DNA of 64,000 nucleotides from Cyanophora paradoxa CCMP329 (lineage: Eukaryota; Plantae; Glaucophyta), in NCBI GenBank assembly GCA_004431415.1, contig QPMI01000599.1, forward strand, positions 124,001 through 188,000, read 5' to 3'. Position 1 is the stretch's first letter. Every line of letters begins with the position of its first letter. Shown here in pieces: positions 11,383 through 39,133 of this stretch. Below the pieces are notes generated by a model. It did no database searches. It worked only from the letters and a program-made list of their open reading frames with translations, and was not told the origin of the DNA. The translations under genes and the position numbers were made by a program.

Positions 11383-11840
11383 TTGATCATGATCATATCT
11401 CCGATTCAGAAGCTGGAACACGCGCACGAGACACAGCGCGAACGACAACCCACAATCGCGATCAACGCGTGCAATCGCGATCGGTGTGCTTTGTTCGCGA
11501 TCAACGCATGCCATGATGCGATCGCGATCGGTGCAATCGGTTCTATCGAATTTACGCATGTGTCATGTATACAGGTCACTGGAACTGCAACGCTTACGCA
11601 TGCATCGACTGCGCATGCGCATGCCGGGGCCGCAGCTGCAGATGCAGGCGCCGCACATACAGCTGCAGGAGGCGCGCGCAGACATGTGCAGCCGCAGCCA
11701 GCAAGATTGAGGGATCAATCTGCACGCATTTTTGATGCGATCTCAAGATTGAAGGAAGCGGTCGTCAATTCTCATGCGCAGCTGCAGCTGCAGACGTCGA
11801 CGTCGGCGATATCCGTACCTTCAATACTTGCGGAGATCGA
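11383..11840 (+). pseudogene. 5' part of the host dynamin-like GTPase gene, cut off by the viral insertion
   Basis: The ORF reads ...DAISRLKEAVVNSHAQLQLQTSTSAISVPSILAEI and then runs into viral DNA. The same peptide resumes at 39134 and continues into the G1 motif. The true gene start is uncertain. Confidence 0.75.
11750..11840 (+). repeat. Left copy of 91-bp target-site duplication
   Basis: TGAAGGAAGCGG...GCGGAGATCGA, identical base for base to 39132-39222. Confidence 0.95.
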
Positions 11841-11893
11841 TATGCCAGATCCAAGCCCTCGGGCTTCGCCCTCTGGCTTGGATCTGGCATATC
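11839..11893. repeat. Left terminal hairpin
   Basis: 19-bp perfect stem GATATGCCAGATCCAAGCC / GGCTTGGATCTGGCATATC enclosing CTC-GGGC-TTC-GCCC-TCT (internal mismatch plus mini-stem). Confidence 0.95.
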
Positions 11894-11976
11894 CCTATGT
11901 GTGCGCGTTTTAGGCACTAGGGTAGTAAGCATCTATTTTAGGTCTTAGGGTAATAAATATGTCTTTTTGGCACCAG
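11890..11976 (+). repeat. Left terminal inverted repeat (87 bp)
   Basis: Reverse complement of 38984-39070 with 7 mismatches by manual alignment. Confidence 0.95.
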
Positions 11977-11980
11977 CAAG

Positions 11981-12093
11981 GGGTGTTGAGGGTGTTGAGG
12001 TGTTGAGGGTTGTTTGTAAACTTTCTTATGAAAATTCTCTCTCGCGGGAATTTTTACATATAACCCTCAACACCCTCAACACTCTCAACACCC
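11981..12093. repeat. Left subterminal iteron-like palindromic cassette
   Basis: Arms (GGTGTTGAG)x3 and (CTCAACACC)x3 surround a core GGGTTGTTTGTAAACTTTC...TTTTACATATAACCC. The core is similar to the reverse complement of the core in 38843-38935. Confidence 0.85.
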
Positions 12094-12097
12094 TCTC

Positions 12098-12495
12098 TTA
12101 AACCTCAAACCTCCTCTTCTCATGGTGTAATCTCTTTTTGATCACTGCCCCAAATCCAATAGCATATTTGTTTATCTCCTCCTCCAGCTCAAAAGCAATT
12201 AAACTTGTATTCCTTTCTGCCTGTTTTCCACAGCTGAATATATCTATTGCCAACATGCCTTGATCACTGTAGCAATGAGCAGAGCAATGGCTTTCATCTA
12301 ATAATAATACTTGGGCAAATCCAGGGGTGATTTGGTGCCATCAAAAATCTCAGCATGTTTGTGGACAACCTGTATTCCATATTTCTTGATGATGTCTTCA
12401 CTGACATTCATGAGCCATTTAGAGAGCCCCACATGGTCGCTAATTGGTTGGCTGAATTGGAAATCAAGCATCACATGGTAACCTTTGGCAAGCAT
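12098..12495 (-). CDS. speD: Prokaryotic-type S-adenosylmethionine decarboxylase proenzyme (SpeD family), one frameshift near 12325
   Basis: MLAKGYHVMLDF...FDGTKSP, then in the adjacent frame PGFAQVLLLDESHCSAHCYSDQGMLAIDIFSCG...RRFEV*. Contains the E|SH pyruvoyl cleavage motif and DIFxCG. One extra C in the CCCC run restores the frame. Confidence 0.85.
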
Positions 12496-12540
12496 TTTGA
12501 TTACCAATAGAATAGAAAAAACAATAAGACATCTGACGAT

Positions 12541-13384
12541 TTAAGGCAAAGGATCACTTCCACCAATGGGATTGTATAAATTGGTGGTTAGATACTGTCC
12601 ATATCGATTTCCTCTTGCGATTTCATCATTTCTTTCAGCATACATAATTACTGTGTAAGTCCCTTGTTGTGTGGCTCTTATAATATATTGGTCATCTTGT
12701 GTGTCAAGCAGGGCAATGAATGAAAAGCAAGACCGAAATTATCTACTGGACTACTTGGACTGTAATACGGGGTCTTGCTCCATCAGTTCGTCTACATAAT
12801 GAGTAAATATCAGCAGGCAATGTCTCAATATACCTATAATGATTTCCCAAAGGCTCTAATACATCCAGAACGGCTGTTTGAAGGTTTATAATAATCGTAT
12901 TGATTTTTATAATGTAGGGCTCATTCATACCTGGGACATATGTCCTGATTCTTGTATTTACATCATCAGGATTGGGTTGATCATTTACTAACAGGGGCGC
13001 TCCAATAATTCCACCAACCCTTAAACCATCTCCAATATAGGCGCCTCCTGATCTACATTTAATTGCTCCCCTTCTTGCCTCATAGGCAAAGTTTGTTACC
13101 TTGTTGTCATCATTGTAACTATCAGGATCTCCATGAAACGCATTGAAATTCGCATTTGTTACAAGAAGTTTTGTAGTTTTAACGACCCCATTATTTTTGT
13201 CACATCTCAATTCTCTTAGTCTTAGCATGTGAGTGTCGCCAAAAGTATTAAGAGTTGGTGCTATCTCTGTGGATTCAAGGCCATCAACATTATCAATAAT
13301 AGCATGTTGTAAAACGTGATTGGCTGGAGCAGCTAATGATAGTTGGGCTGTTAAAATGCGTTCAGGTGGAGCAGGAGCTGCCAT
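12541..13384 (-). CDS. Putative virion/fibre-associated protein, paralog 1 (frameshifted near 12745-12710)
   Basis: The 213-aa ORF continues in shifted frames to DDQYYIRATQQGTYTVIMYAERND...SDPLP*. It aligns along its length with 13404-14247. Confidence 0.6.
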
Positions 13385-13403
13385 TTAATGTATCAAAACA
13401 TAT

Positions 13404-14247: not shown

Positions 14248-14287
14248 TGCTTCTTTTACTAAGAAGGATAGAAAAATAAACGAATAT

Positions 14288-17200
14288 CTATGCTACCATC
14301 TTCCCTGTTGCAATATAAGTCATTTGATAGTGGAAAAGTCCAATGCTTTCATTGTATTCTCTATTTGCCGAAATTGTTGCATAAATAGTAAATGTTGTTG
14401 TTGTGGAACTTGTGACACCATATACCAATACATATGAACCACCATTATACCCATCTCTTAAATTGAGAACGACTGCTGGGGCTTCTGCAAACGCTTTTGG
14501 AATGTGACAACTTGTGGAAATCCCCAATGACCCGGACCTGTGATTGCTAAGGATTTTGAAAAACTCCCTGTCTGTATATACTGGTCTTTATTGACCCGTT
14601 GTTCTGAGACAAGTTTCGCAATCTTACCATTGTCTTTTTCATCCATCGCATAGTATGCTCTTGCGTAAGCATTGCCACGACATAATAGTGTTTTATCGTA
14701 TATGTTCGCGGAATTGTGGAAGAACCACTGTTCGTAGAATAAAGGAGAGTCTGGTTGGTAAATTTGACCGGATCCTACATACATGGTATTATTTGCTGTG
14801 ATCGTATTTGCTACAAATGGGTCTAAGGTTGGGAAATCTGTGATTTCCGATTTCGTGTGAGTATGGCGAAATCTGTTATATTTGCCTTTGTGTGAGTATG
14901 TGCAAAATCGGTGATATCTGATTTAGTGTGAGAGTGAGGTCCGACAGTTGTGGAAGCTGTTGGTTTCCCGTAAATGTTATCCCAATGCAAGAAGCCACTG
15001 TGTGATGATACAGCAGGATTTTTACTCCAACCAACAAGACCCACAAGGTAAATCCTTCCAATTCGCCCTTGAACACCAACTTTACTCAGCCCTTCACAAT
15101 TTACCCCGACATATTGCCTATACTCTACACTTGGGTCACTACCAGGAGAATAAGCATTTACTCTCGAAAGTGTATAAGAATTTGTTGATGGATAAACTCC
15201 CACAACATCAAAGTATCTACTATTGTATTGACACACATAGAAGATATAGCATGTCTTCATTCCCGCGGGACAGTCCATAACATCTTGTAGCCACTACAAT
15301 CTTCATCACCAGAAGCCCATGTGTTTGCTCCTGAGTAAGGAGATATGAATGTAAAAAATCTCCAATCACCTGTGCGGTCTGTGGAAATACCACTTGTAGC
15401 ATCGAAATTTGTGGGTGCTGTATATGTTGGTTTATTAATTAAATCATCATAATTTCCGCTTGTCGCAACTGCTGCTAAGGTGGGTCTATCCGTAATATGG
15501 CTCCATAAATGTGGATGTGGTGAAGGTGTGAATGTTACAGGCTTATCTGTTATACTATTCCATGTGTGTGTGTGGTCAAAATCTGAAATCTCATCTTTTG
15601 TGTGAACGTGTGCAAAATCGGGTATCTCTAATCGGGAATGTGTGTGGGCAAAATCTGTTATTTGTGATTTTGTGTGAGTGTGTGTGGGTATCTCCAAATT
15701 GCTAAGTGTTAATCTGTCTTTGCCGATAATATTCAGAATTTCCCGAGTTAAGATTGGTTGAGTATTGGGAATCCATACATTTGTTGGATGTAATACCTTA
15801 CTTGTTGTTTTTCTGCTGTGGTTAATGCTCTGTTGAATACAATAATCTCAGCAATGCTTCCCGCAAATATTGTTCCAAATCCAAAATCGTTTATAGTGGA
15901 ATCAGGTAAATAATTATCAATTCCTGTGAGAGTTCCCACATCGACACCATTTAGCCCAACTGTGTAGCTATCAGAAGTTATTGTTTGGTCTGAGTAATAC
16001 CATTTATTTACCAAAGAGGGAACTGTGACAGCAATTGGAGGTTGTGTTACACCATTTATAGCGAAAGTAGTTGTCCCTAATCTTGTTGAATTATTTGCTC
16101 CATAGTAGGCAAATCGCGTTGGTGATGTTGTTTTTAGCACTCTCAAATGTGTATGAGAAGCACCTGTTTGTGTTAAATGATATCTTCCAATATAGAAGAA
16201 TGTCAAACCTTGTGACCAATCAATTGTTCTTGTCATCGTTGAGTTTGCTGAGAAGTTCCCTGAATCGCTTGTTAAAGTCATCTGATTATTTATAGCAATA
16301 TTGGATGAGTAGTAGGGACTTCCTGTGGAACTGACAGTTATAGATGGAACGATTGAGGAGACCCTATTGTAAAGAATTGTTGATGCTGCATTTTGACCGT
16401 GAACCCCTGATGCCTTCCAAGCAAAAATACAATTGGGAATGTTAGAAGCTGGATCAAAATTGGAAGTGATTCGATAAAAATTTTCACTATAAGATTCTAA
16501 ATAGCTTCCGGTTCCCATTTGAATTTTCCCTCCAACTGTTAGGTTGCTTGTCACCACCAAGTTGCTGGTAATGGTTCCACCATTGAGTGGTAGATAATTA
16601 GATAATGCTACATTAAGTTCCTGTTCAGTCACATATTCTTCAAGAATTGCTGCAAGTTCTGTATCGTCTACATAATTTTTGCTTTCAAGGTAATCATCTG
16701 TGACAACACCTGAAAGGGTCTCATTGTGTAAATTTTTTGCCGCCATTCTCTGATTGACTTCTAAGGCGCCACCTGCTAATGTTTTGATCCACGCCATCTC
16801 ACATTTCCCGAAATCATCTTTTGGTTGTCCCACAAGTGGTGCGTAATTGAATTTCGAGCGACTAAATATTATTTTCGGTCTTGATCCATCGGTTGCGCTT
16901 ACATCTGTAACGTTTACTTGTAAGATGGCGTCTTTATCATCATAACTCACTGGATCTAATGGAAGTGGAGGTAAACCTGCTGTTAATGGGATATCTTCAT
17001 TATAATAACTTGTCAAAAACAGACCTGGTTTAGTATCTATAACTCCCACCCCACCTGCTGAAACCATTTGAGATCTTGAAGGTTGTTTAATGTATAATTC
17101 GCCATCCATTGTGGTGCCTGCATCTATTCCTTTTCGGTGCAAATAGTATTCACTTAATTGTAATCTTTCAGGAATGGTGTCACTCTGATAGAAACTAACC

Positions 17201-20200
17201 CCATAAAATCCGTCACCATTTACTAAATCACCTGTTGATGCAAAACGTGGTTTTTCATCTATTTCACTCCATGGGTGTTTGTGGTTAGAGTTTGTGATTT
17301 CGGAATAATCATGAGTGTGTGAATCTGGTGGAAAGGTTAACGGAGGATTTGTGATATGCTCCCATAAATGAGTATGGGCAAAATCTGTAATTTGCGCTTT
17401 GGTGTGTGTGTGGTTTTGTATCCAACCTTGAACCACATTCGATGTTGGATGATGAGGAAGATTAGCATTACTTGTTACAGTGAGATAATCGATCACTGTA
17501 TCGGGTGATGTGATCTTTAAACCTCTGTAAATGGTCAGAGGTTGAGTATTGGGGAATCCATACATTTGTTGGATGTAATACCTTACTTGTTGTTTTTCTG
17601 CTGTGGTTAATGCTCTGTTGAATACAATAATCTCAGCAATGCTTCCCGCAAATATTGTTCCAAATCCAAAATCGTTTATAGTGGAATCAGGTAAATAATT
17701 ATTAATTCCTGTGAGAGTTCCCGCATCGACACCATTTAGCCCAACTGTGTAGCTTGTAGAAGTTATTGTTTGGTCTGAGTAATACCATTTATTTACCAAA
17801 GAGGGAACTGTGACAGCAATTGGAGGTTGTGTTACACCATTTATAGCGAAAGTAGTTGTCCCTAATCTTGTTGAATTATTTGCTCCATAGTAGGCAAATC
17901 GCGTTGGTGATGTTGTTTTTAGCACTCTCAAATGTGTATGAGAAGCACCTGTTTGTGTTAAATGATATCTTCCAATATAGAAGAATGTCAAACCTTGTGA
18001 CCAATCAATTGTTCTTGTCATCGTTGAGTTTGCTGAGAAGTTCCCTGAATCGCTTGTTAAAGTCATCTGATTATTTATAGCAATATTGGATGAGTAGTAG
18101 GGACTTCCTGTGGGACTGACAGTTATAGATGGAACGATTGAGGAGACCCTATTGTAAAGAATTGTTGATGCTGCATTTTGACCGTGAATCCCTGATGCCT
18201 TCCAAGCAAAAATACAATTGGGAATGTTAGAAGCGGGATCATTACTGGCTGTAATAGAATACCATTCTCTGTAAAGTTGGTTCATGGTATTAAAGTTGCC
18301 TGAGCCAATCGTTAGAATTCCATTCACTTTTAGGTTGCTGGTCTCTATGTTGCTACTGTAAATATTACTATTTACTGTAAGGTTTCCTGTGATTGTCCCA
18401 CCAACAAGCGGGAGATATTTTGATAATTCCGCGGCAAGTTCAGGTTTTGTTACATAATTTCCAAGCATCGCAAGAGTTACGAAATTAACGAGAATTACAG
18501 CCGTTAGGTAATCTTCTGTTACCACTCTCGAAATATCTTCATTGTGTATATTTTTGGCGCTTGCTCTTTGATTGATTTCTAATAAACCTTCACCAACTCC
18601 GCCATTATAATTTGTTTTTATCCATGCTACCTCACATCTTCTATAATCATCTCGATTTCCTATAAAAGTATTTGGTAAAAGACGCTGCCGACTAAATACT
18701 AATTTCGGTCTCGATTGGTCAAAATCGCTTACATCTGTTACATTAATTTGGATTGCGGCATCTTTGTTATCATAACTATTTGGATCTAATGGAAGTGACG
18801 GTATCGGAGGTAATACATCTGTCATCGGGATATCCTCAGGGTAGAAGCTTGTTAAATAAATTCCGGGTTTCGTCTCATATAAACCAAAATTACCATTGAT
18901 TGGTAAAATCCCCTCTCTTCTGGGTGGTCTAATGTATAATTCGGCTTCCATTCCTGTGCCTGCTTCTATTCCCATGCGATTAAGGTAGTGGTCATTTAAT
19001 TGTAATCTTTCTTCGATTTCTATGTTTCGGTAGAGACTTACGCCATGTTGGAAATCTGTTAATATATTTCCTGCCGATGCGAAAGTAGGTTGCTCATCGA
19101 TTTCGTCCCAATTATGCCTATGATCTGCTGGTGGAAATTCAGTAGGTATGTTATCTAAATCTTCCCAATCGTGCCTATGCTCTGTCGGTGGGAATCTATC
19201 AGGTTTATTCTCGATTTCGTCCCAATCATGGCCATGGGGATCAGGTGGATATGTTTGTGGTTTATTTCGAATGTCCTCCCAATCCACTATGAAATCGAAT
19301 AGATCAGGTGCGAAACCATCAGGTAAAAGCTGCTCATCAAAAGGCTCGTAGCGATCATAAGTTACAAGATTTGGGTCGAAACCATCTGGTAAGACATTAT
19401 CCTCTTCAAATCGCCTATCTTCAAGAGGTATAACATTTACATCTGGTGATAAAAGCTCCTCAGCTGGTTGTTTGTAATCTGTAAATACTGGTTTGTTTCT
19501 GACTTTTTCCCAGCTAACTATGTGCTGCCCAAAGGCTACATTTTCCTCTGCTGTGTATTCCCTCCCAGGTTGCTTCTTTGGTGTAAGGTCAGGTGGATCC
19601 CACGGAAGCGGAAAGGGACAGGAACAGGACCGTAATGCTCAAAGATTTCCCTTATAGTTTTCTCACTGACAAGCTTCTCACCATTGGCATACACATTGCT
19701 TCCATGGATATTTCGCCACTGCCTCGTCCTGATTCCAAGGTCTTTTGTGTTTGTGACCAAAGGTAAAAGGTGCCTATCCATTTCGACAAGATCAGGATGT
19801 AAATGGATTGCTACTGGTTGAGTGGGGCTGCTGTTGATGGTAATTGATGGCTTTTTCTGGTGGACATCATTTGGAGTAAAAAACCCAAACGGCTCATTCC
19901 TCGCAAAGTCATATGTAATATCCTTGGGGTATACATCATTAGTTGAACAGACTTGATTCGTGTTCTGGAAATGGCCCACTTGTAATACTTGGGGAACCTC
20001 TGTTTTTGTGGTGCTGCCCTCATTATAAATTCTTAAACCTGTGTTCTGTTTGCCCTGCTCATCTTGTACATTGAAAATCAAACGGCCACTATCACACCTT
20101 GATGGTATGTCTGGATGGGTTCCACTTGGTTTGAGTTTTCTCGGTCTCCTTCTGGTTGCCTTGATCTCTGCTACTTGATTGGCTTTCACATTGCCCAAAC

Positions 20201-20408: not shown

Positions 20409-20451
20409 GGCTTTTACTATATGGATTTATAAAATTCCTTATAAGTATTAG

Positions 20452-22008
20452 ATGCCTCACAAAATAGTCCTTAGTTTGTCAGGTGGCGGGGCAAGGGGCA
20501 TTATCATTACCAGACTTCTTAAAGAAATCGAAAATCGAACTGGCAGGCGTATAATAGATCTTGTGGATCTTGTTAGTGGAACTTCCACAGGTGGGATCAT
20601 TGCCATTGGGTTGAACATTAGGCATCCAGATAGGGCAGGCGAACCCAAACTCACAGCCAATGATTTACATAATATATACCTCACTCAGCTGCCCTTGATT
20701 TTCGCAAATCCTCGAAATATAATCGAAAATGCCCTTTTTAACACCAAGTATGATGTGGCTCCTTTAGAAAGCGCAATCAATTCTGTTACTGGCGAATCCC
20801 TCATTCAAGATTCCTTGAAGGACATTGTTATTACTTCGTTTGATACTCAGTACATGAAACCTATATTCATCACAAACGATAACAACTACAACTTTCTGCC
20901 CTGTAAAATAGCAGCAAGGGCTACCTCTGCTGCTCCCACCTACTTTTCACCTGTGAGTATAGTTGACTTCAATCATGGGATAACTGCTTGCCTTATTGAT
21001 GGTGCTATCTCAGGAAACAATAACCCCAGCGTGTGTGGCTATAGCCATGCGAGGAAGATTTACAGTGATGATGATGACATTATAGTTATAAGCATCTCTT
21101 GTGGTGAGGTAGACCCATATTTAGAGTCTGATTATTTCGGCTATGCTTATGAGACTGTGAACAGTTGGGGCATTCTCTCATGGATTGCCTCAACAGATGG
21201 AAGCCCATTGATTAACATGCTCATGGCAGCAAGTGAGCTGTCGGCTCTTGACAAGATGGAGGAGTTGCTACCTTATAACTACGATCAGGATTATGGAAGG
21301 TACTATAGGCTATCTGTTCCTCTTCCAAATCACATAGTCAGGTCCCTTGATGATACCTCTAAAATCCCTGACATGCTTTCGTTCACCGAGACATACATAG
21401 CAGCAAACAACAGCATGATTAATAAGCTTTGCGATTTGCTGGTAGCAAACTATGAATTAAAGAACCCATCAAAAGCATACATCTCTTCCACTCTCACCCT
21501 GTCACCACCTTTGGATGCTAATTGGTACAAACTTGCTGATGATGCCTTTACTGCCTCCTCCTCTGTGATAGGTAAAGAGCCCCACATGGCTCGACCTTCA
21601 TCATTTGGCTGGGAAGCTGGGGCATTTGCTCCAGAGCAGATATGGGAGACCCCCACTGAGTACCTTCAAGTTGCTTTCCCATACACTTTTGAACTCTCTT
21701 CAGTGGTTGCCTATGGGTCAGGGGACACCAATGCTTTTATAAAGACTTTCAGTGTGGCTACATCAACTAATGGGGTCAACTGGTCTTTTATTCGAGCAGA
21801 AGGGCAGAACAAAACATTTGTTTGTGAGAATATAAACAATGCTAATAATTCCGGCGATATAGCTTTATTAAATGGTTACCCTCTCACCATCAAGGATGCT
21901 TTCTACGTAGGGTTCTCTTTGAGAATCAAGTATGTTCGCATTTATCCCCTTGTCTATGTGAATGCTCCCACAATGAGAGTCGATTTTACAGGTGCGTTTA
22001 TTCGATAA
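20452..22008 (+). CDS. Patatin-like phospholipase fused to a C-terminal discoidin (F5/8 type C) domain
   Basis: LSLSGGGARG, SGTSTGG, ATSAAPTYF and IDGA motifs. C-terminus has FTASS, EYLQV, FSVATSTNGVNW, KYVRIYP and MRVDFTG. Confidence 0.9.
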   Translation: MPHKIVLSLSGGGARGIIITRLLKEIENRTGRRIIDLVDLVSGTSTGGIIAIGLNIRHPDRAGEPKLTANDLHNIYLTQLPLIFANPRNIIENALFNTKYDVAPLESAINSVTGESLIQDSLKDIVITSFDTQYMKPIFITNDNNYNFLPCKIAARATSAAPTYFSPVSIVDFNHGITACLIDGAISGNNNPSVCGYSHARKIYSDDDDIIVISISCGEVDPYLESDYFGYAYETVNSWGILSWIASTDGSPLINMLMAASELSALDKMEELLPYNYDQDYGRYYRLSVPLPNHIVRSLDDTSKIPDMLSFTETYIAANNSMINKLCDLLVANYELKNPSKAYISSTLTLSPPLDANWYKLADDAFTASSSVIGKEPHMARPSSFGWEAGAFAPEQIWETPTEYLQVAFPYTFELSSVVAYGSGDTNAFIKTFSVATSTNGVNWSFIRAEGQNKTFVCENINNANNSGDIALLNGYPLTIKDAFYVGFSLRIKYVRIYPLVYVNAPTMRVDFTGAFIR

Positions 22009-22931
22009 ACTCGAGCTGAAAAGAATTGTCAATTCCGTTCATGTCAATGATTTCCCCAAAGTAGTCTCTAAACTCAACTGTTAATTCCCTTACCACCAGA
22101 TGTCGGTCGTTAATTCGAATAAATTCCCCATGCTCACCATTATAGTAAACATAGCCTCCTATATCCTTGCTTAATTGGAGTCTCAGTATGGCGCCTTGGT
22201 TTTGTGGCTGTGATTTTGGGACTATATTATGTCTGCTGGCAAAGGGAGCAAGTTCTTTGACATGTAAATAAAGGTACTGCTCAGCGTTCATGTCTGCCAT
22301 CTTATTGCTGTAATAAACATATCTAAGAGGTGTGGATGAAAGTCTGGATCCCGAAAAGGTAGTTCCCACAAGGGTGATTGAGTGTGATAGGTTTGCCATC
22401 ATACTTTAGAAAATTCTCAGGGCGATATGGAGATTGAGAGGGCGAATTGTCATCCATAAATGAAGACTGGAACTCAGTTGAGCTTAACCCCAGAAGCTTA
22501 CCAATACGCTTATTGCTTGCTCTTATACGGAAAAATCTGTTACTGTAGAACTCCACTTTATAAGTGGTCGGATTGTAAAATAATTTGAATTCGAAAGCAA
22601 CTGTTTTTCCTGCTATAGTTTCCTCATAGAACACATAGTTCAATCCATAGTTGTATGGTTGGGTGACCCCAAAATGTCCCTGATTGATATAACCGGTTGG
22701 CAGGGGGGAGATGTTGTAAGTTACTGTTTCAGTGACAGAACTATCCTGATAGGTGAATTCCACTATTAAATGATCTGTTCCCACACTATTGTAAATGCTG
22801 TTTGGAATTTCTGCGTAAATAACCCTACACTCTCGAGGTCTCTCTACTGGTGTTGTGAGGGCAACCCTGTAAGAGTTTTCGGTTTCACCTTGGCTGCGAT
22901 CCCTGCTATCAACATTGACAAGCCGGTTCAT
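21998..22931 (-). CDS. Minor capsid (penton)-like protein 1, one frameshift near 22330-22400
   Basis: N-terminal VNVDSRDR...YRVAL...AEIPNSIYN and C-terminal YLYLHVKEL...LTVEFRDYFGEIIDMNGIDNSFQLEF match the penton-type pattern of PLV/NCLDV proteins. Confidence 0.75.
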
Positions 22932-22939: not shown

Positions 22940-23970
22940 ATGAATATAGATAAAAGGAGAATGCCCGTGGATTACATTGAGGTGAGTTCTTTTAATACAA
23001 TCTCTGGTGACGGTCCTACTTCAAGCTTTGTAGCTCGACTTCCAAACATATATGAGAATGTGAGGGCTGTCAGGCTGGTCTCGGCCGAATTTTATAATAG
23101 TATCCCTATGGTGAGTGGTGAAACGCAACCAGGGGATATTACAATTGATAATTCATTCAGCATTTTTTGGAGTGAAGAATTCGATGGTGCTGGCATTGAT
23201 GGCATTCCAACTACTCGACCAGCGGCCGGCTTTGAACCTTGGAAGCAATTAATCATAAGTCGCAAAAAACCCATTCAAAGCCACCAGCAATTGGTAAATG
23301 TAATTAATGCGAAATTCGATGATAGAGAGCCGGAACCATCTATTCGCTGTAAATGGGATGAGTCACTAAAACGAATTATATTCCACTCAGAGAAACCTTT
23401 CTATTTAGCCTTCTCTAACGCTGGAAATCCAAACCAGAAAACGATCCAAAAGTTGCTGAGCGCTGCCCGATTGCTTGGTCTTGATCCCGGAAGATATGGA
23501 AATTCCCCAATCCAATCACAGGTTTATAATGCTCTTACTGATGGCATCTTTACTGGTGAACGGGTGAATGGTATTATATCTTCGTTTGAGCCTGAAAAGA
23601 CAAGGGACAGTGTTTTATTTGTCAGAGTAAAAGAGTTGGGTGATCTGGTTCAGTGTGGGGATGGTCTCCTGACTGGTTACTTCCACAAAATCGTGGTTCC
23701 TGACAAGGACTATGGTGAGCATGTGGTTTACAATTCAACAGAATCTCACCCACTTTACAAGTACTATAACAAAAAATGGGTTTGTCTACATTCTCTGTGG
23801 ATATAGTAAATGCTATAAACGAACCAATCGATTTTGAGGGTCAACCTGTCCACCTCACATTTGAAATTCGATATGGGGAGGAGCCAGCAGGCGACCCTGT
23901 CTATGAATACTTTAAGATGCGGATGTCACAAAGTCATCCAACATATCCAATCATTGCGAGTTTTGGGTAA
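22940..23970 (+). CDS. Minor capsid (penton)-like protein 2, one frameshift near 23775
   Basis: FVARLPNIYENVRAVRLVSAEFYNS...LFVRVKEL...LSTFSVDIVNAINEPIDFEGQPVHLTFEI shows the same pattern as penton 1. Confidence 0.7.
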
Positions 23971-28615: not shown

Positions 28616-28620
28616 GCACA

Positions 28621-28857: not shown

Positions 28858-29191
28858 AATAATCTACTTTTAGGTAGCATAAAAATGCGAAAGAGGCGGC
28901 TCTGCGTAGAGCTTGATGAGAGCTTCACAGGAAAAAAAAGAGCGCTCAAAACGGCCAATCTGGTGCCGAGATATTCACGTTTGAAGTTCCTTAAGTGGCT
29001 CTAATTGAAAGTTTTAGAAACATTCTTATAGAGCTCTATAAGGAAAAAACCGCCTACTGCTGTACGGTAGGCGCGAGGGCTCTACCGGTAGGCGAGTAGG
29101 CAGGGCCCTACTGTCCTACCGCCGGCGGACTGTGCCTACCGGTCTGCTGTAGACACACGGGCTCGCCTACCACTGCGGTAGGCTGGCTCAT

Positions 29192-29838
29192 ATATGTATA
29201 TGATATATATGAAAAAAACAAGTTTCGGTAAAAACTATAGCGCCGTGATCGCCATGACGCGGCGAGTCCGGAAAGCTATGATATATATATATGTCATGTG
29301 ACATAATGATATATCATATACATATATAATTATGGTATATACAAGTCGCTCAAATTTAAGTCTTATAAGGTCTTATAAGAGTTGTCTTATAGAATTCTTT
29401 TCTAAAATCTTATATGGTCTTATAAGATTTAATGTGCGTACCGTAGCGCAGTACGCAAGCCACTTTGCGTACCGTAGCGCAGTACGCAAGCCACTGTGCG
29501 TACCGTAGCGCAGTACGCAAGCCACTGTGCGTACCGTAGCGCAGTACGCAAGCCACTGTGCGTACCGTAGCGCAGTACGCAAGCCACTGTGCGTACCGTA
29601 GCGCAGTACGCAGGCCCCTGTGCGTACCGTAGCGCAGTACGCAGGCCCCTGTGCGTACCGTGGCTCAGTACGCGCGAACGTACATATGTATATGATATAT
29701 ATGAAAAAAAAAACAAGTTTTGGTAAAAACTATAGCGCCGTGATCGCCATGACGCGGCGAGTCCGGAAAGCTATGTTATATATATATGTCATGTGACATC
29801 ATAATATATCATATACATATATCATTATGGTATATACA
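29192..29838. repeat. Two direct repeats of about 150 bp (29192-29343, 29684-29838) flanking a tandem array
   Basis: Near-identical copies. Each carries inverted arms ATATGTATATGATATAT / ATATATCATATACATAT and internal palindromes. Confidence 0.9.
29433..29673. repeat. Tandem array of 31-bp hairpin-forming units (about 7.8 copies)
   Basis: Unit TGTGCGTACCGTAGCGCAGTACGCAAGCCAC contains the stem TGCGTAC/GTACGCA. There are no unique spacers. Confidence 0.95.
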
Positions 29839-30380: not shown

Positions 30381-30740
30381 TGGGGGGTTAGGGGACTCAA
30401 GGAGAAGTTAGGGGGGTTTCTGCCAACTGACGTCTTGTTGTTTAGGTTACCATTCTCAGTCTGGAAGGTGGGGTTTAGGGGGGATTAGGGGTTGTGGAGT
30501 GGGTAGGGGGTATTCTCTCACAACTCTATATATTTCTGGCTTGTTGCTTAAAAATGAAAAGATTTGGAGGCTATAGGAGTTATATATCCCCCCCTAACCC
30601 CCCTAACCCCCCCACATGTATACATTATTACCATTTCTGGTCATAAAACAACCAGAAAGTAAAAAACGATCCCCCCCCAGATCCCCCCCCAAACTTCTGG
30701 AAACCCCCCCAAACCCTCCCAAACCCCCCCAAACCCCCCC
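30381..30740. repeat. G/C-run iteron-like repeats downstream of the primase-helicase
   Basis: GGGGGTTAGGGG-type runs (30381-30492) face CCCCCCCTAA / AAACCCCCCC runs (30587-30740). Confidence 0.75.
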
Positions 30741-30758
30741 AGGCCTATCATGAGCCCC

Positions 30759-33032
30759 CTAATCCTCCTCCTCTTCCAAAAATTCCACCAACAGCCCACA
30801 GCTCTTGAAGTAAGCCATCATCTCATCCCACTTGAAGACATAACACTCCCTTCCACAATACTTGGTAGGCCTCACATATTCCAGTCCAGCCATCTCAATG
30901 TAGAACTTCCTTGAGCTGAATTCATTCTTGAATTTATTAATTGTAATGAACTGCTGGAACCACTCCCACACCTGTTGCCTGTTCTCAGTCCTTGGTGTAT
31001 CCTTGGTAATCTTTTGGGTGTCTACCAAATCCTTGGTGAACAAGGCAGTGACAGGAACACTTGCTTGTTGGGCAAGGTAGTAGCTGTTGGTCATTGGCCT
31101 GTCAGCATACCAGTTCACATCTGTGACATCCACCTTGTTTTTCAAGTAAAGGAATACCATGTGCTGGTTTCTTGGCTCCTTCAGCCAATTACCCAGTGAC
31201 TTGAAATATTTCATGTCACCCTTTTTCTTGTCACTCACCTCCACAATCACAAACCTTCTATCTCCAGCCTCCACTTTGATTGGTAGGGTGTTGTTGGTAG
31301 TAAATATGATCCTGGCAAAATTCCTCACCTCATGAGAATTGACATACTTAGCCTCAATTACAATTTTCTCAGCAGTGATCATGTCCTTGAGGGCATCACT
31401 GTTTGTGAAGGTGTCTTTGCCACTTGCCTCATTCACAGTGATAAGTAGTTTGTGCTTTCGCTGGTGGGCAAAGTTTCCAAATAAGTCCTTCAGTGGGTTG
31501 GCTGTGCTGAAAGCCAAGTCCCCACCCAGTATTTCATTTTGAAACCAATCCAATATGATGTTCTTCCCCACTCCTTGCTTTCCCTTGAAGATGATTGAAA
31601 TCCCATTCAACTCCCCAGGTCTCTGAATAATGTGGGCAAAGTACTTCAGTATGTAATTGAATGTAGAAGCATCTTCACCACTGAGAATCATCATGTGGTC
31701 AAGGAATGGGCTAACATCTTCCTCAGTTACATCAGGAGGAATATCCATTTTACTCACATCCATAAGCTCACCTTTCATACCAGCATAGGCATTAAACACC
31801 TTGGCAGTGGTGGAAGCAGATTTTACAGGAGGTGGGAGGAAGTCCAAGTAATCATACCTTGTGGCAGTCTCATCTTTCGCCCACTTTTTGATGAAGTTAT
31901 GAGGCTCCATCTTCATAGACATTAGGTCAAACTCTGTGTACTGAATGTGAGGGTATACATCCTCAGCCAAGCTTTTGAAGCTGGTTGTGTCATACTTCTT
32001 GGTATGATCATTCCAAGACAAGACAAACCCAGGCTTCATAATGTGAGCAAGTCTGGCATCCATGTAGGGCTTGATCTCCATGTAATCACAGTTGGTAGGA
32101 ATTGGAGCAGTCTTGTAATCAATGTTGGAAAGGGAAGCTTGACATTCAGGTACATCAAACCCACTGGCCATAGGTTTTTCCACAAAAGTCACCCTGTAGC
32201 CAGTTTTTCCCTCCACATAATCACTAACCTCTTCCAAAGCACTCAATACTTTGGGGTCTTTCCTGATCATACATCCATCAAAGACCAAGACATCCACATG
32301 GAGCTTAAGAGCACTGAAGTACTCACAAGCAGCCATTAACACCTGATTCTCAAGGTCACATAGTACCATATTCATGGTGGAACCAAGTACATTGCTTTCT
32401 TTCTTGCGCTTAGCAATAGCATAGAAGCGCTGCTTCTCAATCCCACCAATGAATTGATGGACTTTGGCCATTTCCTCTTTGAGATCACTGAAGTACTTGT
32501 GATTGATAAGTAGGCTAGAGAGGTCAGCCCCTTGCCCACCATTGATGACTGCCAGAATGCTGCGCTTGACATCAGCCTTGGATTTCTGGGTGACCTCACA
32601 GAGATCATCAAGAATTTCATCCCTGCTCTGAACATATTTGTTCAGCTGAGGAGTGGCAATTGAATGTTTCTCACAATACTGAACAAGCAGGACAGGGTGG
32701 CAGTTCACAATGTCAATGTCATAGTAGTAGTCCTTGGAAATGGTGTGGCGAATTTCCCTACAGATGCTTTGAAGGCTGGGGGTTTTTCCATCCACAAAGT
32801 ACCTACCAGTGTTGTGCTTCACCTGCTTATATTTACAGGTGTGGTAGCCCTCATGATCGACGATAGAAAGTAATTTCTGGATGATGGCTCTCATTTGGGT
32901 CTTGTCAGTTTCAGGGCGAAACTGGAGATTATCAAAGTTCTCCACCACCCATTTGAGGTTACCTCTGTGGATGCGCTCAGTGAGAATGAAGGTGTTGCCA
33001 TTGGGGTTGATTGAGCTGAATGAGGGAGCCAT
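30759..33032 (-). CDS. PolA-like (TV-Pol) primase/polymerase fused to a D5-like superfamily 3 helicase
   Basis: N-terminal GRYF...SLQSICREIRH...DIDIVNCHP...LVFDG. C-terminal Walker A GKQGVGKN, Walker B ITVNE, IIFTTNN and DRRF. Intact, 757 aa. Confidence 0.85.
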   Translation of the reverse strand: MAPSFSSINPNGNTFILTERIHRGNLKWVVENFDNLQFRPETDKTQMRAIIQKLLSIVDHEGYHTCKYKQVKHNTGRYFVDGKTPSLQSICREIRHTISKDYYYDIDIVNCHPVLLVQYCEKHSIATPQLNKYVQSRDEILDDLCEVTQKSKADVKRSILAVINGGQGADLSSLLINHKYFSDLKEEMAKVHQFIGGIEKQRFYAIAKRKKESNVLGSTMNMVLCDLENQVLMAACEYFSALKLHVDVLVFDGCMIRKDPKVLSALEEVSDYVEGKTGYRVTFVEKPMASGFDVPECQASLSNIDYKTAPIPTNCDYMEIKPYMDARLAHIMKPGFVLSWNDHTKKYDTTSFKSLAEDVYPHIQYTEFDLMSMKMEPHNFIKKWAKDETATRYDYLDFLPPPVKSASTTAKVFNAYAGMKGELMDVSKMDIPPDVTEEDVSPFLDHMMILSGEDASTFNYILKYFAHIIQRPGELNGISIIFKGKQGVGKNIILDWFQNEILGGDLAFSTANPLKDLFGNFAHQRKHKLLITVNEASGKDTFTNSDALKDMITAEKIVIEAKYVNSHEVRNFARIIFTTNNTLPIKVEAGDRRFVIVEVSDKKKGDMKYFKSLGNWLKEPRNQHMVFLYLKNKVDVTDVNWYADRPMTNSYYLAQQASVPVTALFTKDLVDTQKITKDTPRTENRQQVWEWFQQFITINKFKNEFSSRKFYIEMAGLEYVRPTKYCGRECYVFKWDEMMAYFKSCGLLVEFLEEEED

Positions 33033-33130
33033 TCTATAATAGGGTGAGATAATTATTTCAGTGAACTATACCCTTAAGTACTTTTCAGAAAAAGGAGTAA
33101 CTCCAATCAATTTTTTCGGACCCCCCACCC

Positions 33131-33322
33131 TCATACATAGGGATTTCGCTTCCTTGGCCGCCCCCTCCGGTCAGGAACAGCCTCTTCAAACAAATACCTG
33201 ATACACAATAAAGCGCCTGCTCTGTACGTACTAACCCTTACATATTTCTTGTGAAGCTCTCGAAACTCTGGGTCATTTTGAATCCTGCGTTGGATGTATC
33301 TCATTTGCTTTGTGTATGCCAT
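33131..33322 (-). CDS. Small basic protein with AT-hook (RRGRPRK)
   Basis: 63-aa ORF with an upstream ACTTAAAA motif. Confidence 0.55.
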   Translation of the reverse strand: MAYTKQMRYIQRRIQNDPEFRELHKKYVRVSTYRAGALLCIRYLFEEAVPDRRGRPRKRNPYV

Positions 33323-33375
33323 TGCTTGATGCGTTTCCTCTTATAGTATAGTTGAGATTTCTTTTTAAGTAGATT

Positions 33376-33876: not shown

Positions 33877-33981
33877 CTTGATCTCCTTTGAATATAGTAG
33901 AGAAAATAATCTTTAAGTAGTAACTATACCAGCACTTAAAGAAATAAAATGTTCCCTATATAGAATACAGCCCCCACAACC

Positions 33982-36900
33982 ATGCCCCGCCCCAGCCACT
34001 ACCAAATTAAGGAGCTCCAGGACAAGATTCTCGGGAATCTGGCGTTCTTACTGGCCAATCACTCCATCAGTGAAAGTGAATATGAATCTTATATTAAACA
34101 GACCAACAAGAAGCTCAAGGGGCTTCAAGCTCTCAATCGAGAGCTATTAGGGAAAATCGAGACCCTTGATGAGACTGATCGCCTTGGCCAAATCCAAGTC
34201 GAACAAACTACCACAACTCAAGTCAGAGGAGATGAATACACTACCTTAATAAATGAACATCGTGCTCTTAATAATAAATACATTGATTTTACCATCAGGG
34301 CTCACCACCAGATCCTGACCACTCAAGAGTTTATAGACACCTACTCTGAGGAACTCCACACAAGGCTCCAAGATGCCATCAATTCACAGATGTCGATTAA
34401 AACTCGCTTTACGTTTGTCTGTCGCTTTTCAAAAGCAAACAATTCGAGAGACTTTATTACCAAGCACATTTACAGCACCTATGCTATCATGACAAGATCT
34501 CGAACCCTCACTAAAGAAACTGCGAAATTGGCTAAGGAATGCCAGTCGCAAATTAATGTCACAGACAGCTATAAACTCCAAAGCATTGAGGCTTTGAGAG
34601 TGATTGTTCTGTCCTTTAAACCCATCTCAGGAGGTGCTTTTATCCCACTCCCAGAGTGGCTCAAAAATAAACGAGCCATTGTCAATGTTAATAACAAGGA
34701 CAATAGATGCTTTGAGTATGCTATCCTTTCTTATATTCACAAGGACGAAGTAAATAGCCACAAGCGCAATGAGACTTCCCAATACAGGAGGTGGTTCAAA
34801 AAAGAACTAAATTTCGAGGGCATTGAGTTTCCTGTAAAGGCAGATGCTGATACTATTGATCTCTTTGAAAATCTCAATCCAGCAATCTCTGTTAATATTT
34901 ACGACCCCTCTAACTCTACAGAAGAAATTAATCTACTCCACAACAGCTCCTCAAGGAACAGGAAACACCAAGTGGATCTGCTGCTAATTACAGACGAAAA
35001 TGGTAACAGTCATTATACCACAATATTCAGCATGTCCAGAGTCTTAGCTAAAAATGATAAGCAGCGACTCCATTTCTGTAAAACCTGTTCCAACCACTTC
35101 AAGACTGAGGAGAAGCTTCAATCCCACATTCAAAGCAAACGTTGTGTGGATTGGAAGACAAGTGCTGGAGAGACCCCAAAACAACCCACATTCATTGAAT
35201 TTGGTCTTAAACATCTCTCAAAGACTGTATTCCTCCCCGTGATTGCCTATTGCTATTTCGATTATGAAACAGATATTTCTGGTATGTTCAAGATCAAATC
35301 AATCTCACTGACAGCTCTTCATAATAATAGAGTAGTACTCACTAAAACCCACTCCAACATCTTTGAGCTCCTGAGTACCCTCGACAGCACAGCCCAGAGC
35401 TATTCAAAGCCCTATTTACCAACATCCCAATGTCACTGACCAAAGAGCAGAAACGTACCCATTACCTTGCTAAAACCTGCTACATCTGTGAGGGTACGTT
35501 TTCCCAAGACAACTATAAAGTGAGGGATCACGACCACCAAACTGGCGATTTTGTAGGCACAGCATGTCGCAAATGTAATCTCCACAGACGCACCAGCAAT
35601 CTCACCAAGATTCCCATAGTGACCAATGATCTGTCCCTATCTGGAACGCAGATATTCAAGGCAGTCGCCTTAAATCCCGAAAAAAGGGTGGAAGTCCTCG
35701 CAAAATCGTTTGACAGCTACATGTCGATCACCTGGGGCTGTTTCAAATTCATTGACATCAAAAACTTTATTGATTATGGCGTCCAGAACGTGGAAGGATT
35801 AATGGAAAAGTTCCAGCTTTTCCGCCAGAAATCACACAAAACTTTTGGGATGGATGCTGCCCACTATGTCTCAAGTCCGGGGCTTTCGTGGGACAGCATG
35901 CTATCTATTACCAAGCCTAAAATCGAGCTTCTTTCCAACCTTGATATGTACAACATGGTTGAAGGCATGATCAGGGGAGGCCTTTCGATTATGAATCATA
36001 AATATGCCAAAAAGGAAAGGGACAGACACATTATATATTTGGATGCCAATAACCTATATGGATATGCCCTGTCCCAAACGCTACCCCTCTCGAATTTCCA
36101 ATGGCACCCAGAACCCTCAAATTACGACCTGTCATCAGCAGAGGGGGCCATCTTAGAAGTTGACATCCATTATCCCCAGCACCTCCATCAACTCCACAAA
36201 GAGCTACCTCTTGTCATCAAGAGAGCAGAGGATGGACTTCAAGCAGCCTGCGAAGACATTTGTAATTATGTGGTGTCGAAACCTTTGCTCCAATTCATGG
36301 TAGCGCAAGGCTTAAAGGTCACCAAAATCCACAGGGTGCTAACATTTACTCAGGCTGCCTTTATGAAGCCTTACGTCGAATCCAATGCCCAAAACCGCAA
36401 AGCAGCCCCTTCCAAACCCGAAAAGGACTTCTTTAAGATCATGAACAATAGCCTTTTTGGCAAAACCATTGAGAAAGTGAGAGGAAGGTCTAATGTCAAG
36501 ATTGCCACCAACGAAAAGCAATTTATGAAATACGCCAGATCGCCCTACTCAAAGCAGAAACAAGACTAAGCGATTCAGCAGTAGCCTTCGAAATGCTACA
36601 AAAAGATGTCAAGTTAGATAAGCCCATAGCAATTGGGGCAGTTGTTTTAGATCTTGCCAAGCTGCGCCTATTTGATTATTATTATAACACCATCAAGCGG
36701 AAATGGCCAGACTGTAAACTGCTTTTTACTGATACAGATTCGCTTTGCCTTCAAATAAATTCGAAAACTATAGCAAAAGACCTACAAGACATTGACACAC
36801 ACCCCACAGAGCTTGGAAAGTTCAAAAATGAGTTTGAGGGCAGAACCATTATTGAATATGCTGGGGTAAGGCCGAAATGCTACAGCATTAAAACAGATGA

Positions 36901-37075
36901 TGAGGAAATAAAAAAGCTGGCAGGTGTTTGTAAGGAGACCATTCAAGCAGATCTGTCTTTCCAAGATTATAAAGACCATGTGCTCCACCAAAAACCCAAG
37001 CAAATCGAGATGACTGTTCAAAAGAAGCTTGATAATGAGACGTTTAATGTGAAGATGTCCAAGATTGCTTTCTAA
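33982..37075 (+). CDS. polB: Maverick/Polinton-type family B DNA polymerase polyprotein (vOTU-like, C2H2 finger, EndoVII-like insert, PolB); frameshifts near 35420 and 36548
   Basis: FIPLPEWLKNKRAIVNVNNKDNRCF...SHY; CKTCSNHF...H; CYIC...VRDHDHQTG...CRKCNL; IRGG; YLDANNLYG; KIMNNSLFGK; FTDTDS; GKFKNE; RPKCYS. Confidence 0.92.
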
Positions 37076-37086
37076 TCCCAATATAG

Positions 37087-38454
37087 ATGTCATCAAAGAT
37101 CACACGCAGACAAACAGAGTACGATGTGAGTATATTGCCAATCCCAATCCCTCAAGAGGAGAGAGGGGGTCGCATTCAGAAAAAGAGTGACCTCAAAGCT
37201 TTAGTTCCTGCGGATATCCCAACTGCCATTGCTGTGCCTCACTTGGATCCCTTAGCAAGGACATTCTATGACACCAAGGTAGGATTTAAAGGCCTTGCTT
37301 CATTGGCCAAAGAGCTTCCAGATGTGCCAAGAAAGACAATCCGTAGATTCTATGATGCCCAAGAAATCAACCAGATAAATAAACCCCTCCCATCTGCCAA
37401 GAAGACTGCCTATATCCCAATAAGACAGCCACTCGACTGCTATGCCATAGACCTAATCTTTTATCCTTCGTACAGCAAACAGAATCAAGGCTACAACACG
37501 TTCCTCACAGCTGTAGAAAATACCACCAGACTGGGCTTTATAATTCCCATGAGGGGAAAGACAGCAGAAAGCACATTGAACGCATTTAAGGAGCTTGAGC
37601 AACAAGTCCCTCGTCCAATTGTGAAGATACAAAGTGATGCTGGGAGCGAATTCCTGAACAAGGTATTTAAAGACCATTTAGAAACCCAGATGATTGAGCA
37701 CCAAGTTTCGCAGGTTGGAGATCACAATAGCCAAGGCCGAATAGAAGCCTTTAATCGCACAATAAAGAAGCTAATTAACTCGTATTGTATAGCGAATAAT
37801 ACTGTAAAGTTTTTCGACAAGCTCCAAGATTTTGCCTACAACTACAATAATACCATCCACTCAGCAACGGGGATGAAACCAGCAGAGACCACAGAGGTAC
37901 ATGTTCCTCTAATACTCGGAAAAGAAAACGAGAAATTCATGAAGTCAATTGAATATCTAAAAGACTATCCAGCAGGGAGCCACGTGAGAACTAAAATAGA
38001 GAAGAGCCCATTTGCCAAACAAGGGAATAATTGGAGCCGCGAAATATTCACAATAGAAGGAGTGGAGGGGTTCAAATTTAAACTAAGGGACATTTCTGGC
38101 AAACTAATAGATCGACTTTATGCCCACTACGAATTACAGAAAGTGGAAACCGTGGAGTTCTTGGAGGCGCCATCAATAAATGTCATTGAAGAGGCAAAGA
38201 AAGAGGCCAGAACAGAGCGACTTTTGGCCAGAGAGGGGATTGAGAGGGCGCCAAACGTGCCAGATAAACCATTATTGGAGGACAGAGCAGGGAAGAAGAA
38301 GAAACAAGGGAGAGAGTTGGAGAGATTGAGGGTGGCGGGAACAGAGAGATTAGCAGGGGGAGCAGAGGCAGTAAGGTGGTATAGAGATTTCTCGAATTCA
38401 AAGGAGACCTATGAAGCTCCAGCAATTTCCACGAGATCAAGGAGGAGGATTTGA
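37087..38454 (+). CDS. Retroviral-like (rve, DDE) integrase of Polinton type
   Basis: YAIDL (D), IQSDAGSEF (D), IEAFNRTIK (E), YNNTIHSATGMKP and FAKQGNNWSREIF. Intact, 455 aa. Confidence 0.93.
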   Translation: MSSKITRRQTEYDVSILPIPIPQEERGGRIQKKSDLKALVPADIPTAIAVPHLDPLARTFYDTKVGFKGLASLAKELPDVPRKTIRRFYDAQEINQINKPLPSAKKTAYIPIRQPLDCYAIDLIFYPSYSKQNQGYNTFLTAVENTTRLGFIIPMRGKTAESTLNAFKELEQQVPRPIVKIQSDAGSEFLNKVFKDHLETQMIEHQVSQVGDHNSQGRIEAFNRTIKKLINSYCIANNTVKFFDKLQDFAYNYNNTIHSATGMKPAETTEVHVPLILGKENEKFMKSIEYLKDYPAGSHVRTKIEKSPFAKQGNNWSREIFTIEGVEGFKFKLRDISGKLIDRLYAHYELQKVETVEFLEAPSINVIEEAKKEARTERLLAREGIERAPNVPDKPLLEDRAGKKKKQGRELERLRVAGTERLAGGAEAVRWYRDFSNSKETYEAPAISTRSRRRI

Positions 38455-38464
38455 GCAGAGAGGA

Positions 38465-38768
38465 GGATGGGGGGATGAGGGGATGGGAAACCCATCCCCT
38501 TGTACTCGAATAGAAAATTTCAAAAAACAAAAACAAAATTTGTTTTCTGAGAAAAGTCCCATCCCCCTGACTGAGTCCCATCCCCCTCCCATCCCCCTGA
38601 CCAGATATCGTCACAAATCAACCAAATTTCATACATTTTCCCATCCCCCTGCCATCCCCTCTGCCATCCCTCCCATCCCCTGCCATCCCCTCCGCCATCC
38701 ATCCCATCCCCCTGCCATCCCCTCAAACCACCCTTTTACCAGACACTCCCATTCCCCTTCCATCCCCT
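38465..38768. repeat. GGGGATG / CATCCCC iteron-like repeat cluster
   Basis: Three GGATG-type units followed by more than 10 CATCCC(C) units directly after the integrase stop. Confidence 0.8.
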
Positions 38769-38842
38769 GACTATTCAAGATATCTCTTTAAGAGAAAACG
38801 TAAAGAAATGAAGAGATGGTTGGCAGTCTTAATTATGGATAG

Positions 38843-38935
38843 AGGCAGGAGAGGCAGGAGGGTTATATGTAAAATCCCACACAAGAGGGGAATCCATAGG
38901 AAAGTTTACAAATAACCCTCCTGCCTCTCCTGCCT
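38843..38935. repeat. Right subterminal iteron-like palindromic cassette
   Basis: Perfect 24-bp arms AGGCAGGAGAGGCAGGAGGGTTAT / ATAACCCTCCTGCCTCTCCTGCCT. The core is homologous to that of the left cassette. Confidence 0.88.
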
Positions 38936-38983
38936 AATTGGTGCCGAATCCAAGCTTCTAATACCCCAGAGGCGGCCAACATA

Positions 38984-39070
38984 CTGGTGCCAAAAAGACA
39001 TGATTAATACCCTAAGACCTGAAATAAATGCTTACTACCCTAGTACCTGAAACGCGCACACATAGGGATA
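38984..39070 (-). repeat. Right terminal inverted repeat (87 bp)
   Basis: Reverse complement of 11890-11976, 80/87 identical. Confidence 0.95.
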
Positions 39071-39133
39071 CCCCTGATCCAAGCCTGTAGGCCGAAGGCC
39101 GGAGGGCTTGGATCAGGGGTATCCCTATGTGTG
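39057..39133. repeat. Right terminal hairpin
   Basis: 29-bp perfect stem CACACATAGGGATACCCCTGATCCAAGCC / GGCTTGGATCAGGGGTATCCCTATGTGTG enclosing TGTA-GGCC-GAA-GGCC-GGAG. Confidence 0.95.

Follow-up and report, generated by a model that had tools for sequence, protein, structure and literature searches.

The window analysed here is a stretch of 64,000 nucleotides from the glaucophyte Cyanophora paradoxa CCMP329 (assembly GCA_004431415.1, contig QPMI01000599.1, positions 124,001 to 188,000), and all coordinates below are positions within it. It contains an element of 27.3 kb (11839-39132), which forms an island of about 40% GC in host DNA of 68-83% GC. This is an endogenous, multi-copy polinton-type virus-like element with terminal inverted repeats (TIRs), a pPolB and an RVE integrase. 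Both of its ends are palindromes that can fold into hairpins. We propose, at roughly an even chance, that these palindromes fold back on the 3'-terminal strand, prime synthesis and transiently close the DNA without a protein primer. The features that bear on this proposal are the following.

11839-11902: left terminal palindrome; hairpin at 11839-11893 with a 19-bp perfect stem, a 3x3 internal loop, a 4-bp mini-stem and a 3-nt loop.
11903-11976, plus strand: left TIR beyond the palindrome; 67 of 74 positions identical to the reverse complement of 38984-39057.
11981-12093: left subterminal palindrome with repeated arms, just inside the TIR and longer than the terminal one (folding z -11.8).
33982-37075, plus strand: pPolB (PF03175; PF02945), in three frames in the window.
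34561-34572, plus strand: loop of the terminal-protein (TP) domain of pPolB, residues 194-197 (T-D-S-Y); Asp stands in the Ser column of other homologs, and the Gly is absent.
37087-38454, plus strand: RVE integrase (PF00665, E 1.3e-5); D122, D184 and E220 are invariant among 21 aligned sequences.
38843-38935: right subterminal palindrome (31-bp arms, 97%; z -12.0), whose arms differ from those of the left one.
38984-39057, minus strand: right TIR beyond the palindrome, common to several different interiors in contigs (loose ends 38982-38984).
39058-39132: right terminal palindrome; hairpin at 39057-39133 with a 29-bp stem, of which 28 bp form the complete stem; the element ends at about 39132.

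A previous, sequence-only reading of this DNA had placed a fold-back hairpin at each end of the element, and its coordinates and stems are borne out. The folding z-scores of the terminal hairpins lie between -8.9 and -11.9, and none of 200 shuffles was as stable, on either strand. The whole window holds six perfect stems of at least 11 bp (loop of at most 40), and only the two terminal hairpins exceed 13 bp. In 100 local shuffles of the element the best stems reached 8-14 bp, against 28 bp observed. Two measurements had to be adjusted. The right stem, given as 29 bp, is perfect but comes to 28 bp once its final G, which is part of a host duplication, is set aside. The TIRs are present, but the length of 87 bp given for them counts part of the inner arm; with the palindromes included, the inverted match covers 140 nt at 87%. 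The same reading had stated that stem differences between the ends are mirrored on both arms. Indeed, the left and right inner arms differ at 3 of 28 positions, every one of which is mirrored on the outer arm, and the mini-stem difference is likewise mirrored within each end. Outside the palindromes the two TIRs differ at 7 of 74 positions.

The centres of the hairpins are strand-specific. GCGAAGC is found a single time in the element: this heptamer sits in the left loop, on the 3'-terminal strand, and the right loop carries a CC-GG variant of it. The C-GAA-G loop belongs to the 3'-ending strand at either tip (the minus strand on the left, the plus strand on the right), and all internal mismatches on the 3'-terminal strand (7/7) are G·A or G·T. 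GCGAAGC is described as an ultra-stable mini-hairpin whose structure is formed only by GNA loops (PMC13037366, in the part available). The terminal stems are GC-balanced, not AT-rich.

Other copies of the element were read from the contigs of sequencing runs, not from raw reads, and these represent integrated copies only. The right part of the element is present in 20 of the 22 listed runs. The depth of the pPolB contig relative to the flank was 16.1 times in run X1, 12.3 in X2, 13.5 in X5 and 6.7 in X18 (rough values, depth not being a copy number); at 7-16 times flank depth, the family is multi-copy. The left-type hairpin appears as one unbranched contig of 114 nt at about 4-5 times flank depth, reaching 9 nt further out than in the window; the depth of this full-length contig was 555 in X5 and 185 in X19. 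In these two runs (X5 record 16, X19 record 8) the 9 outer bases complete a 28-bp stem. Thus, the tips of the family are 28-bp perfect palindromes, and the left one has been shortened in the copy of the window. Hairpins of the right type are joined to two other flanks, at 39132 in X18 and at 39135 in X5, which defines the position of the tip; in three copies the integration tip coincides exactly with the end of the outer arm.

Several copies, and runs dating from 2012, 2019 and 2024, show the same hairpins with fixed loops. Their repeated presence in contigs assembled from short reads of a multi-copy family means that they are not artefacts of assembly, and their occurrence across the family indicates that the element keeps them. 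A single orientation was found in all visible ends (6-7 of about 20 TIR ends), and no strand-changing joints or flop-type loose ends were present among the 24 of 49 and 16 of 22 loose ends listed. In X5 the right-type TIR had a depth of 1064, against 243 for the loop piece, and most of this depth leads to hairpins outside those listed.

The pPolB combines a TP-like domain, a vOTU domain with Cys243/His344, an EndoVII insert (PF02945, E 1e-5), a degenerate exonuclease and intact polymerase motifs. Polymerase motifs A, B and C are kept, and the vOTU Cys/His pair is invariant. The 19 homologs found are polinton-type with an EndoVII insert, which is also present in homologs with a canonical TP loop. 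In the AlphaFold model the TP topology is recovered, and residues 194-196 lie between helix 2 and strand 4. In PRD1 and adenovirus the linking residues occupy the loop between these two elements, with Gly or Pro nearby, and PRD1-like TPs are reported to resemble the Y-family fold (10.1101/2024.03.18.585575, available passages). Weak Foldseek matches of the TP domain to Y-family polymerases, including the little-finger domain, were obtained here (E 0.017-0.06).

A Ser occupies one column of this loop in 18/18 distant homologs (several of them close paralogs) and, by eye, in 10/10 IMG/VR loci; it would be the linking residue. The window protein and P0002, its closest homolog, have Asp in this column and lack the Gly. 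Both have also lost the exonuclease motifs. Loss of the exonuclease paired with a helicase has been described as a trade-off for mavirus (10.1101/2024.03.18.585575, available passages). Two elements with a canonical TP and both TIRs at least partly captured, L090 and L095, have no stem of at least 12 bp at a tip (n=2, one L090 tip lying outside the locus).

The pPolB reading frame is broken in the window. Compared with the contigs, the window carries indel errors at 35392, about 36542, 38676 and 38763. All contigs over 35392, and all those in X1, X2 and X5 at about 36542, are one base off the window, so the pPolB breaks are more likely assembly errors. Decay of pPolB by frameshift was considered and rejected because the contigs differ by one base at both breaks, and the gene is probably whole in the family. 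At 36947-37075 the window departs from the family majority, and the pPolB frame ends some 20-25 residues before those of its homologs. A loose end at 34571 in X18 was considered as a third hairpin type; its position is inside the pPolB gene, where the sequence stays in frame and encodes a diverged pPolB copy whose loop is the same, and this candidate was dropped.

Contigs branch at 33972, just before pPolB, and at 38448 and 38764, just after the integrase, and contig depth falls about tenfold over 38455-38789. This pattern indicates a pPolB-integrase module common to elements with different neighbours, that is, a mosaic family. Published catalogues, in their available portions, already include polinton-like viruses (PLVs) from glaucophytes. 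Scanning viral_contigs with the integrase and the putative major capsid protein singly yielded no relative, and the hairpin patterns had no match in viral_contigs or genome_contigs. Distant integrase relatives were present at 88 loci, mostly fragments without element ends. These loci contained 13 stems of at least 14 bp, two of them near contig ends (L036 and L044); judged by their open reading frames (ORFs), these two are a bacterial IS-like region and a retroelement, so the survey says nothing about the ends of related elements. At another locus, the IMG/VR contig L003, an integrase lies between 69-bp inverted repeats (1-68 versus 1959-2027) with an imperfect long palindrome beside it (1961-2155).

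The element interrupts an intron-containing gene for a dynamin-like GTPase, in a 51% GC stretch of the GC-rich genome, and is flanked by a direct repeat of host DNA.

11750-11840, plus strand: host duplication copy 1, 88-91 bp of coding DNA of the dynamin-like gene; exact direct repeat of 39132-39222.
39132-39222, plus strand: host duplication copy 2, running into the P-loop of the dynamin-like GTPase (PF00350, E 2.6e-5, under the curated cut-off).

The repeat is exact over 91 bp, or 88 bp without the junction microhomologies, and both copies read in the same host frame. The outer arm of the left hairpin lacks 9 nt in this copy, and the junction there has a 2-nt microhomology. This copy thus has an 88-91-bp duplication, not a target-site duplication (TSD) of 5-6 bp. 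RVE integrases in PLVs produce duplications of about 6 bp (PMC12220804, in the text available); the insertion seen here is therefore aberrant. Retroviral integrase is on record as integrating by one end only, with truncation and short homology at the other end and a large duplication of host sequence (PMC5041404, available sections). By analogy, this copy resembles a single-ended integrase insertion finished by host repair: in both cases one end is clean, the other is truncated and shows short homology, and a large piece of host DNA is duplicated, but here the insertion is a natural one of a DNA virus-like element. For the right junction there is a loose end at 11750 in X19, and contigs of X1, X2 and X5 break at 39132. 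The left one appears only in X18 (record 3), where its 28-30 host bases fall under the 31-base bridging rule; X5 and X19 do not show it. With this support at the two junctions, an assembly artefact was rejected as the origin of the 91-bp repeat, and the host duplication is probably real.

Inside the TIRs, the core of the left subterminal palindrome is shared with 38858-38920 in inverted orientation. This palindrome is a candidate origin for the helicase described below. The C-rich repeat tracts at 30588-30750 and 38576-38767, together with the subterminal palindromes, resemble helicase-associated origins. Other copies carry other arms at the site of the subterminal palindrome (loose ends 38982-38984).

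The remaining genes were annotated by library scans, with Pfam covering 25 of the 29 element ORFs of at least 90 aa and other libraries applied to subsets.

12098-12540, minus strand: S-adenosylmethionine decarboxylase-like gene (PF02675, E 3.5e-9; phrog_3125, E 1e-10), in two frames in the window, adjoining the left TIR.
15748-19638, minus strand: long repeat-containing fibre-like ORF with a LamG domain (PF13385, E 1.7e-6) and a 300-nt duplication inside.
20452-22008, plus strand: patatin phospholipase (PF01734, E 1.5e-19) fused to an F5/8 (discoidin) domain (PF00754, E 1.4e-6).
21998-22931, minus strand (split), and 22940-23806, plus strand: ORFs that we presume from resemblance to be minor capsid (penton) genes; the libraries gave no match.
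24025-25395, plus strand: putative, unconfirmed major capsid protein; sole homolog P0001, from EukProt Cyanophora paradoxa (57%).
25502-26449, plus strand: zinc-finger/nuclease, homing-endonuclease-like (HNH-like; phrog_559, E 1.4e-73; PF14311, PF10881).
26510-27292, plus strand: A32-like packaging ATPase (PF04665, E 4.5e-4, under the curated cut-off), with an in-frame stop at 26885-26887 in this copy.
30759-33032, minus strand: second replicase, a superfamily 3 helicase (S3H), D5-like (PF19263, E 7e-20; phrog primase matches).

The putative major capsid protein had no match in Pfam, PHROGs, NCBIfam or PDB sequence searches, and its fold model (pLDDT 31.6) was too poor for a fold search to be meaningful. 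Atlas assigns the product of the second replicase gene to unnamed viral clusters (0.93), and from its motifs we take its N-terminal domain to be PolA/TVpol-like. No capsid-maturation protease and no virophage capsid were matched in the library scans of the element ORFs, nor was a resolvase, RuvC-like enzyme, protelomerase or HUH nickase/Rep. A non-coding block at 29190-29838, in which a 31-bp tandem array lies between 132-bp direct repeats holding AT-rich palindromes, is possibly a nested miniature element or an origin.

The sequence-only reading had interpreted the hairpins as self-priming ends of a covalently closed genome. The self-priming part is favoured by the family-wide keeping of the hairpins, by their strand asymmetry and by the altered TP loop; the analogy with poxviruses and asfarviruses is weakened, as no flop isoform was found among the visible ends and no resolvase or HUH protein among the ORFs scanned. 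In the mechanism that we propose, strand displacement by the helicase, perhaps from the subterminal palindromes, would free a strand. The 3' palindrome of this strand would snap back, and extension by pPolB would yield a duplex with this end closed. The 3'-OH at the tip of the element would then be freed by nicking of the stem base, for which the simplest candidate is the integrase's own 3'-processing cut. Strand transfer and host fill-in through the hairpin would rebuild the palindrome at full length and in one constant orientation, as observed in the visible ends. For the copy in the window, the right end would have been joined cleanly and the left end through host repair, with 9 nt lost, the 2-nt microhomology and the 88-91-bp duplication. 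A wider version of this proposal, in which a polinton lineage switched from protein priming to hairpin self-priming, with a disarmed TP, a free genome closed by hairpins in a single isoform and an integrase doubling as the hairpin-opening nickase, is more tentative, and we regard it as possible rather than probable.

Several observations weigh against hairpin priming, and some of them favour an open-ended genome primed by protein or by the PolA-S3H replicase. In such a genome the palindromes would be dyad or cruciform signals for recognition and end protection by the integrase, helicase or packaging machinery, and their symmetry would be kept by selection or template-switch correction, as in the subterminal palindromes; we consider this possible, at a clear minority chance. 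The TP fold and the vOTU catalytic pair are retained. Thr194, Ser196 and Tyr197 stay in the loop, Ser and Tyr being present in P0002 as well, and since these two residues directly follow the Asp, priming may have shifted rather than gone. The subterminal palindromes differ in their arms between the ends and are nevertheless internally mirrored; as they cannot be tips, mirroring alone does not require hairpin priming. Mini-hairpins of the GNA type also serve as marks of phage origins and of N4 promoters (PMC13037366, in the part available). Moreover, nearest-neighbour energies favour the 3'-terminal strand by only 0.6-0.7 kcal/mol, imperfect TIRs (87%) are also found in the canonical-TP element L095, and a possible primase function of the second replicase could make priming at the tips unnecessary. 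No nickase or resolvase is named among the ORFs scanned, so that the hairpin-opening step is conjectural, and the orientation count is limited to 6-7 of about 20 ends in copies that may share ancestry. Open ends, however, do not account for the strand-specific asymmetry of the palindrome centre, which takes the same form at the two tips, nor for the exact match between the end of the outer arm and the integration tip in three copies. That the TP-loop column changed in this clade specifically (2/2 versus 0/28) would then be a coincidence, and the canonical-TP elements L090 and L095 lack a tip stem of at least 12 bp (n=2).

A genome of the poxvirus or asfarvirus kind, with both ends covalently closed, flip and flop telomeres, and concatemer junctions cut as cruciforms, for instance by the EndoVII domain, appears improbable. 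Incompletely paired hairpins are expected of it, mirrored stems would be automatic in a closed end, and the element does encode an EndoVII domain in pPolB and a separate nuclease. Cruciform resolution in poxviruses gives both isoforms (PMC8956199, available passages), whereas the 6-7 readable ends have a single orientation. EndoVII also occurs in homologs with a canonical TP loop, no RuvC-like resolvase or protelomerase was found within the ORF scan, and the stems are GC-balanced rather than AT-rich. Even less likely, in our view, is that the hairpins are by-products without function, arising from accidental fold-back during excision, repair or integration, or from assembly error. The indel errors of the window against the contigs, the aberrant left end and the left junction seen in X18 only, with its 28-30 host bases, would fit this explanation, and accidental annealing is named as an alternative in the available passages of a preprint on comparable elements of Halocafeteria seosinensis (10.64898/2026.07.28.741278). 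But accidents occurring copy by copy would give a different palindrome at each insertion, whereas the same hairpins with fixed loops recur across copies and years, and the two hairpin types share one architecture with mirrored changes.

Self-priming by terminal hairpins was put forward in the sequence-only reading as a mode undescribed for this virus group. This novelty does not stand, as terminal palindromes with hairpin priming had already been proposed in that preprint, of July 2026. Its available passages describe terminal palindromes in H. seosinensis virophages (subtypes 1, 2, 5, 6) as well as in PLV subtype 4, with an untested hairpin-priming model. Those elements share with ours palindromes at the TIR tips by the target junction, an RVE integrase, and a proposal made from sequence alone. 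They differ in host lineage and in that their palindromes occur preferentially with non-pPolB replicases, whereas the element studied here has a pPolB that bears a TP of altered loop, alongside a PolA-like-S3H replicase; terminal protein and flip/flop are not mentioned in these passages. No other report of hairpin tips was found in the available text of the polinton and PLV literature outside subscription journals (PMC11296320, 10.1101/2022.07.28.501842, PMC10120064, 10.1101/2023.08.22.554363, PMC12220804, 10.64898/2026.10.13.758929, PMC11788076, PMC12747079, PMC11161782). The concept thus has a precedent. Our additions to it are the association of hairpin tips with a TP-bearing pPolB whose loop is altered, the bias towards the 3' strand, the uniform orientation of the visible ends and an aberrant insertion.

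Compared with other systems, the element is composite. With Polintons/Mavericks (Krupovic et al. 2024, available part) it shares the TP-vOTU-PolB arrangement, an RVE integrase with a DDE triad, a putative A32-like ATPase and TIRs. It departs from them by its terminal palindromes, loss of the exonuclease motifs, replacement of the TP-loop Ser column and extra S3H replicase, with no match to a capsid-maturation protease and no 5-6-bp TSD in this copy. Mavirus-type virophages, in the descriptions available, likewise combine a pPolB lacking a working exonuclease with a separate S3H helicase, an RVE integrase and a lipase; here, there is no match to a virophage capsid or protease, the pPolB homologs are polinton-type and the tips are hairpins. 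Terminal imperfect hairpins with a bubble and a mini-stem are also those of parvoviruses with rolling-hairpin replication, and some parvoviral termini occur in one form only (PMC8242256, available sections). However, no HUH nickase was found among the ORFs scanned here, and the element is a double-stranded DNA of 27 kb with its own polymerase and integrase and a D5-like S3H. As in poxviruses and asfarviruses, the terminal hairpins are incompletely base-paired (here as a potential of the sequence); in contrast, the element is integrated, its stems are short and GC-balanced, no flop form is present among the visible ends and no known resolvase was found in the ORF scan.

Altogether, these results carry the sequence-only proposal of 2026 over to another host lineage and to an element that encodes a pPolB, and the single orientation of the visible ends argues against a flip/flop mechanism. 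They bear on the relation of small protein-primed viruses to large DNA viruses with hairpin ends, and on the excision and replication of polintons. The family offers a compact test, being multi-copy, with probably intact pPolB and integrase and with short, defined hairpins carrying a strand-specific loop; the change of a single TP column predicts the loss of protein priming. If this lineage has indeed switched to hairpin self-priming, it would stand, as a living intermediate, between polintons that are protein-primed and large DNA viruses with hairpin ends.

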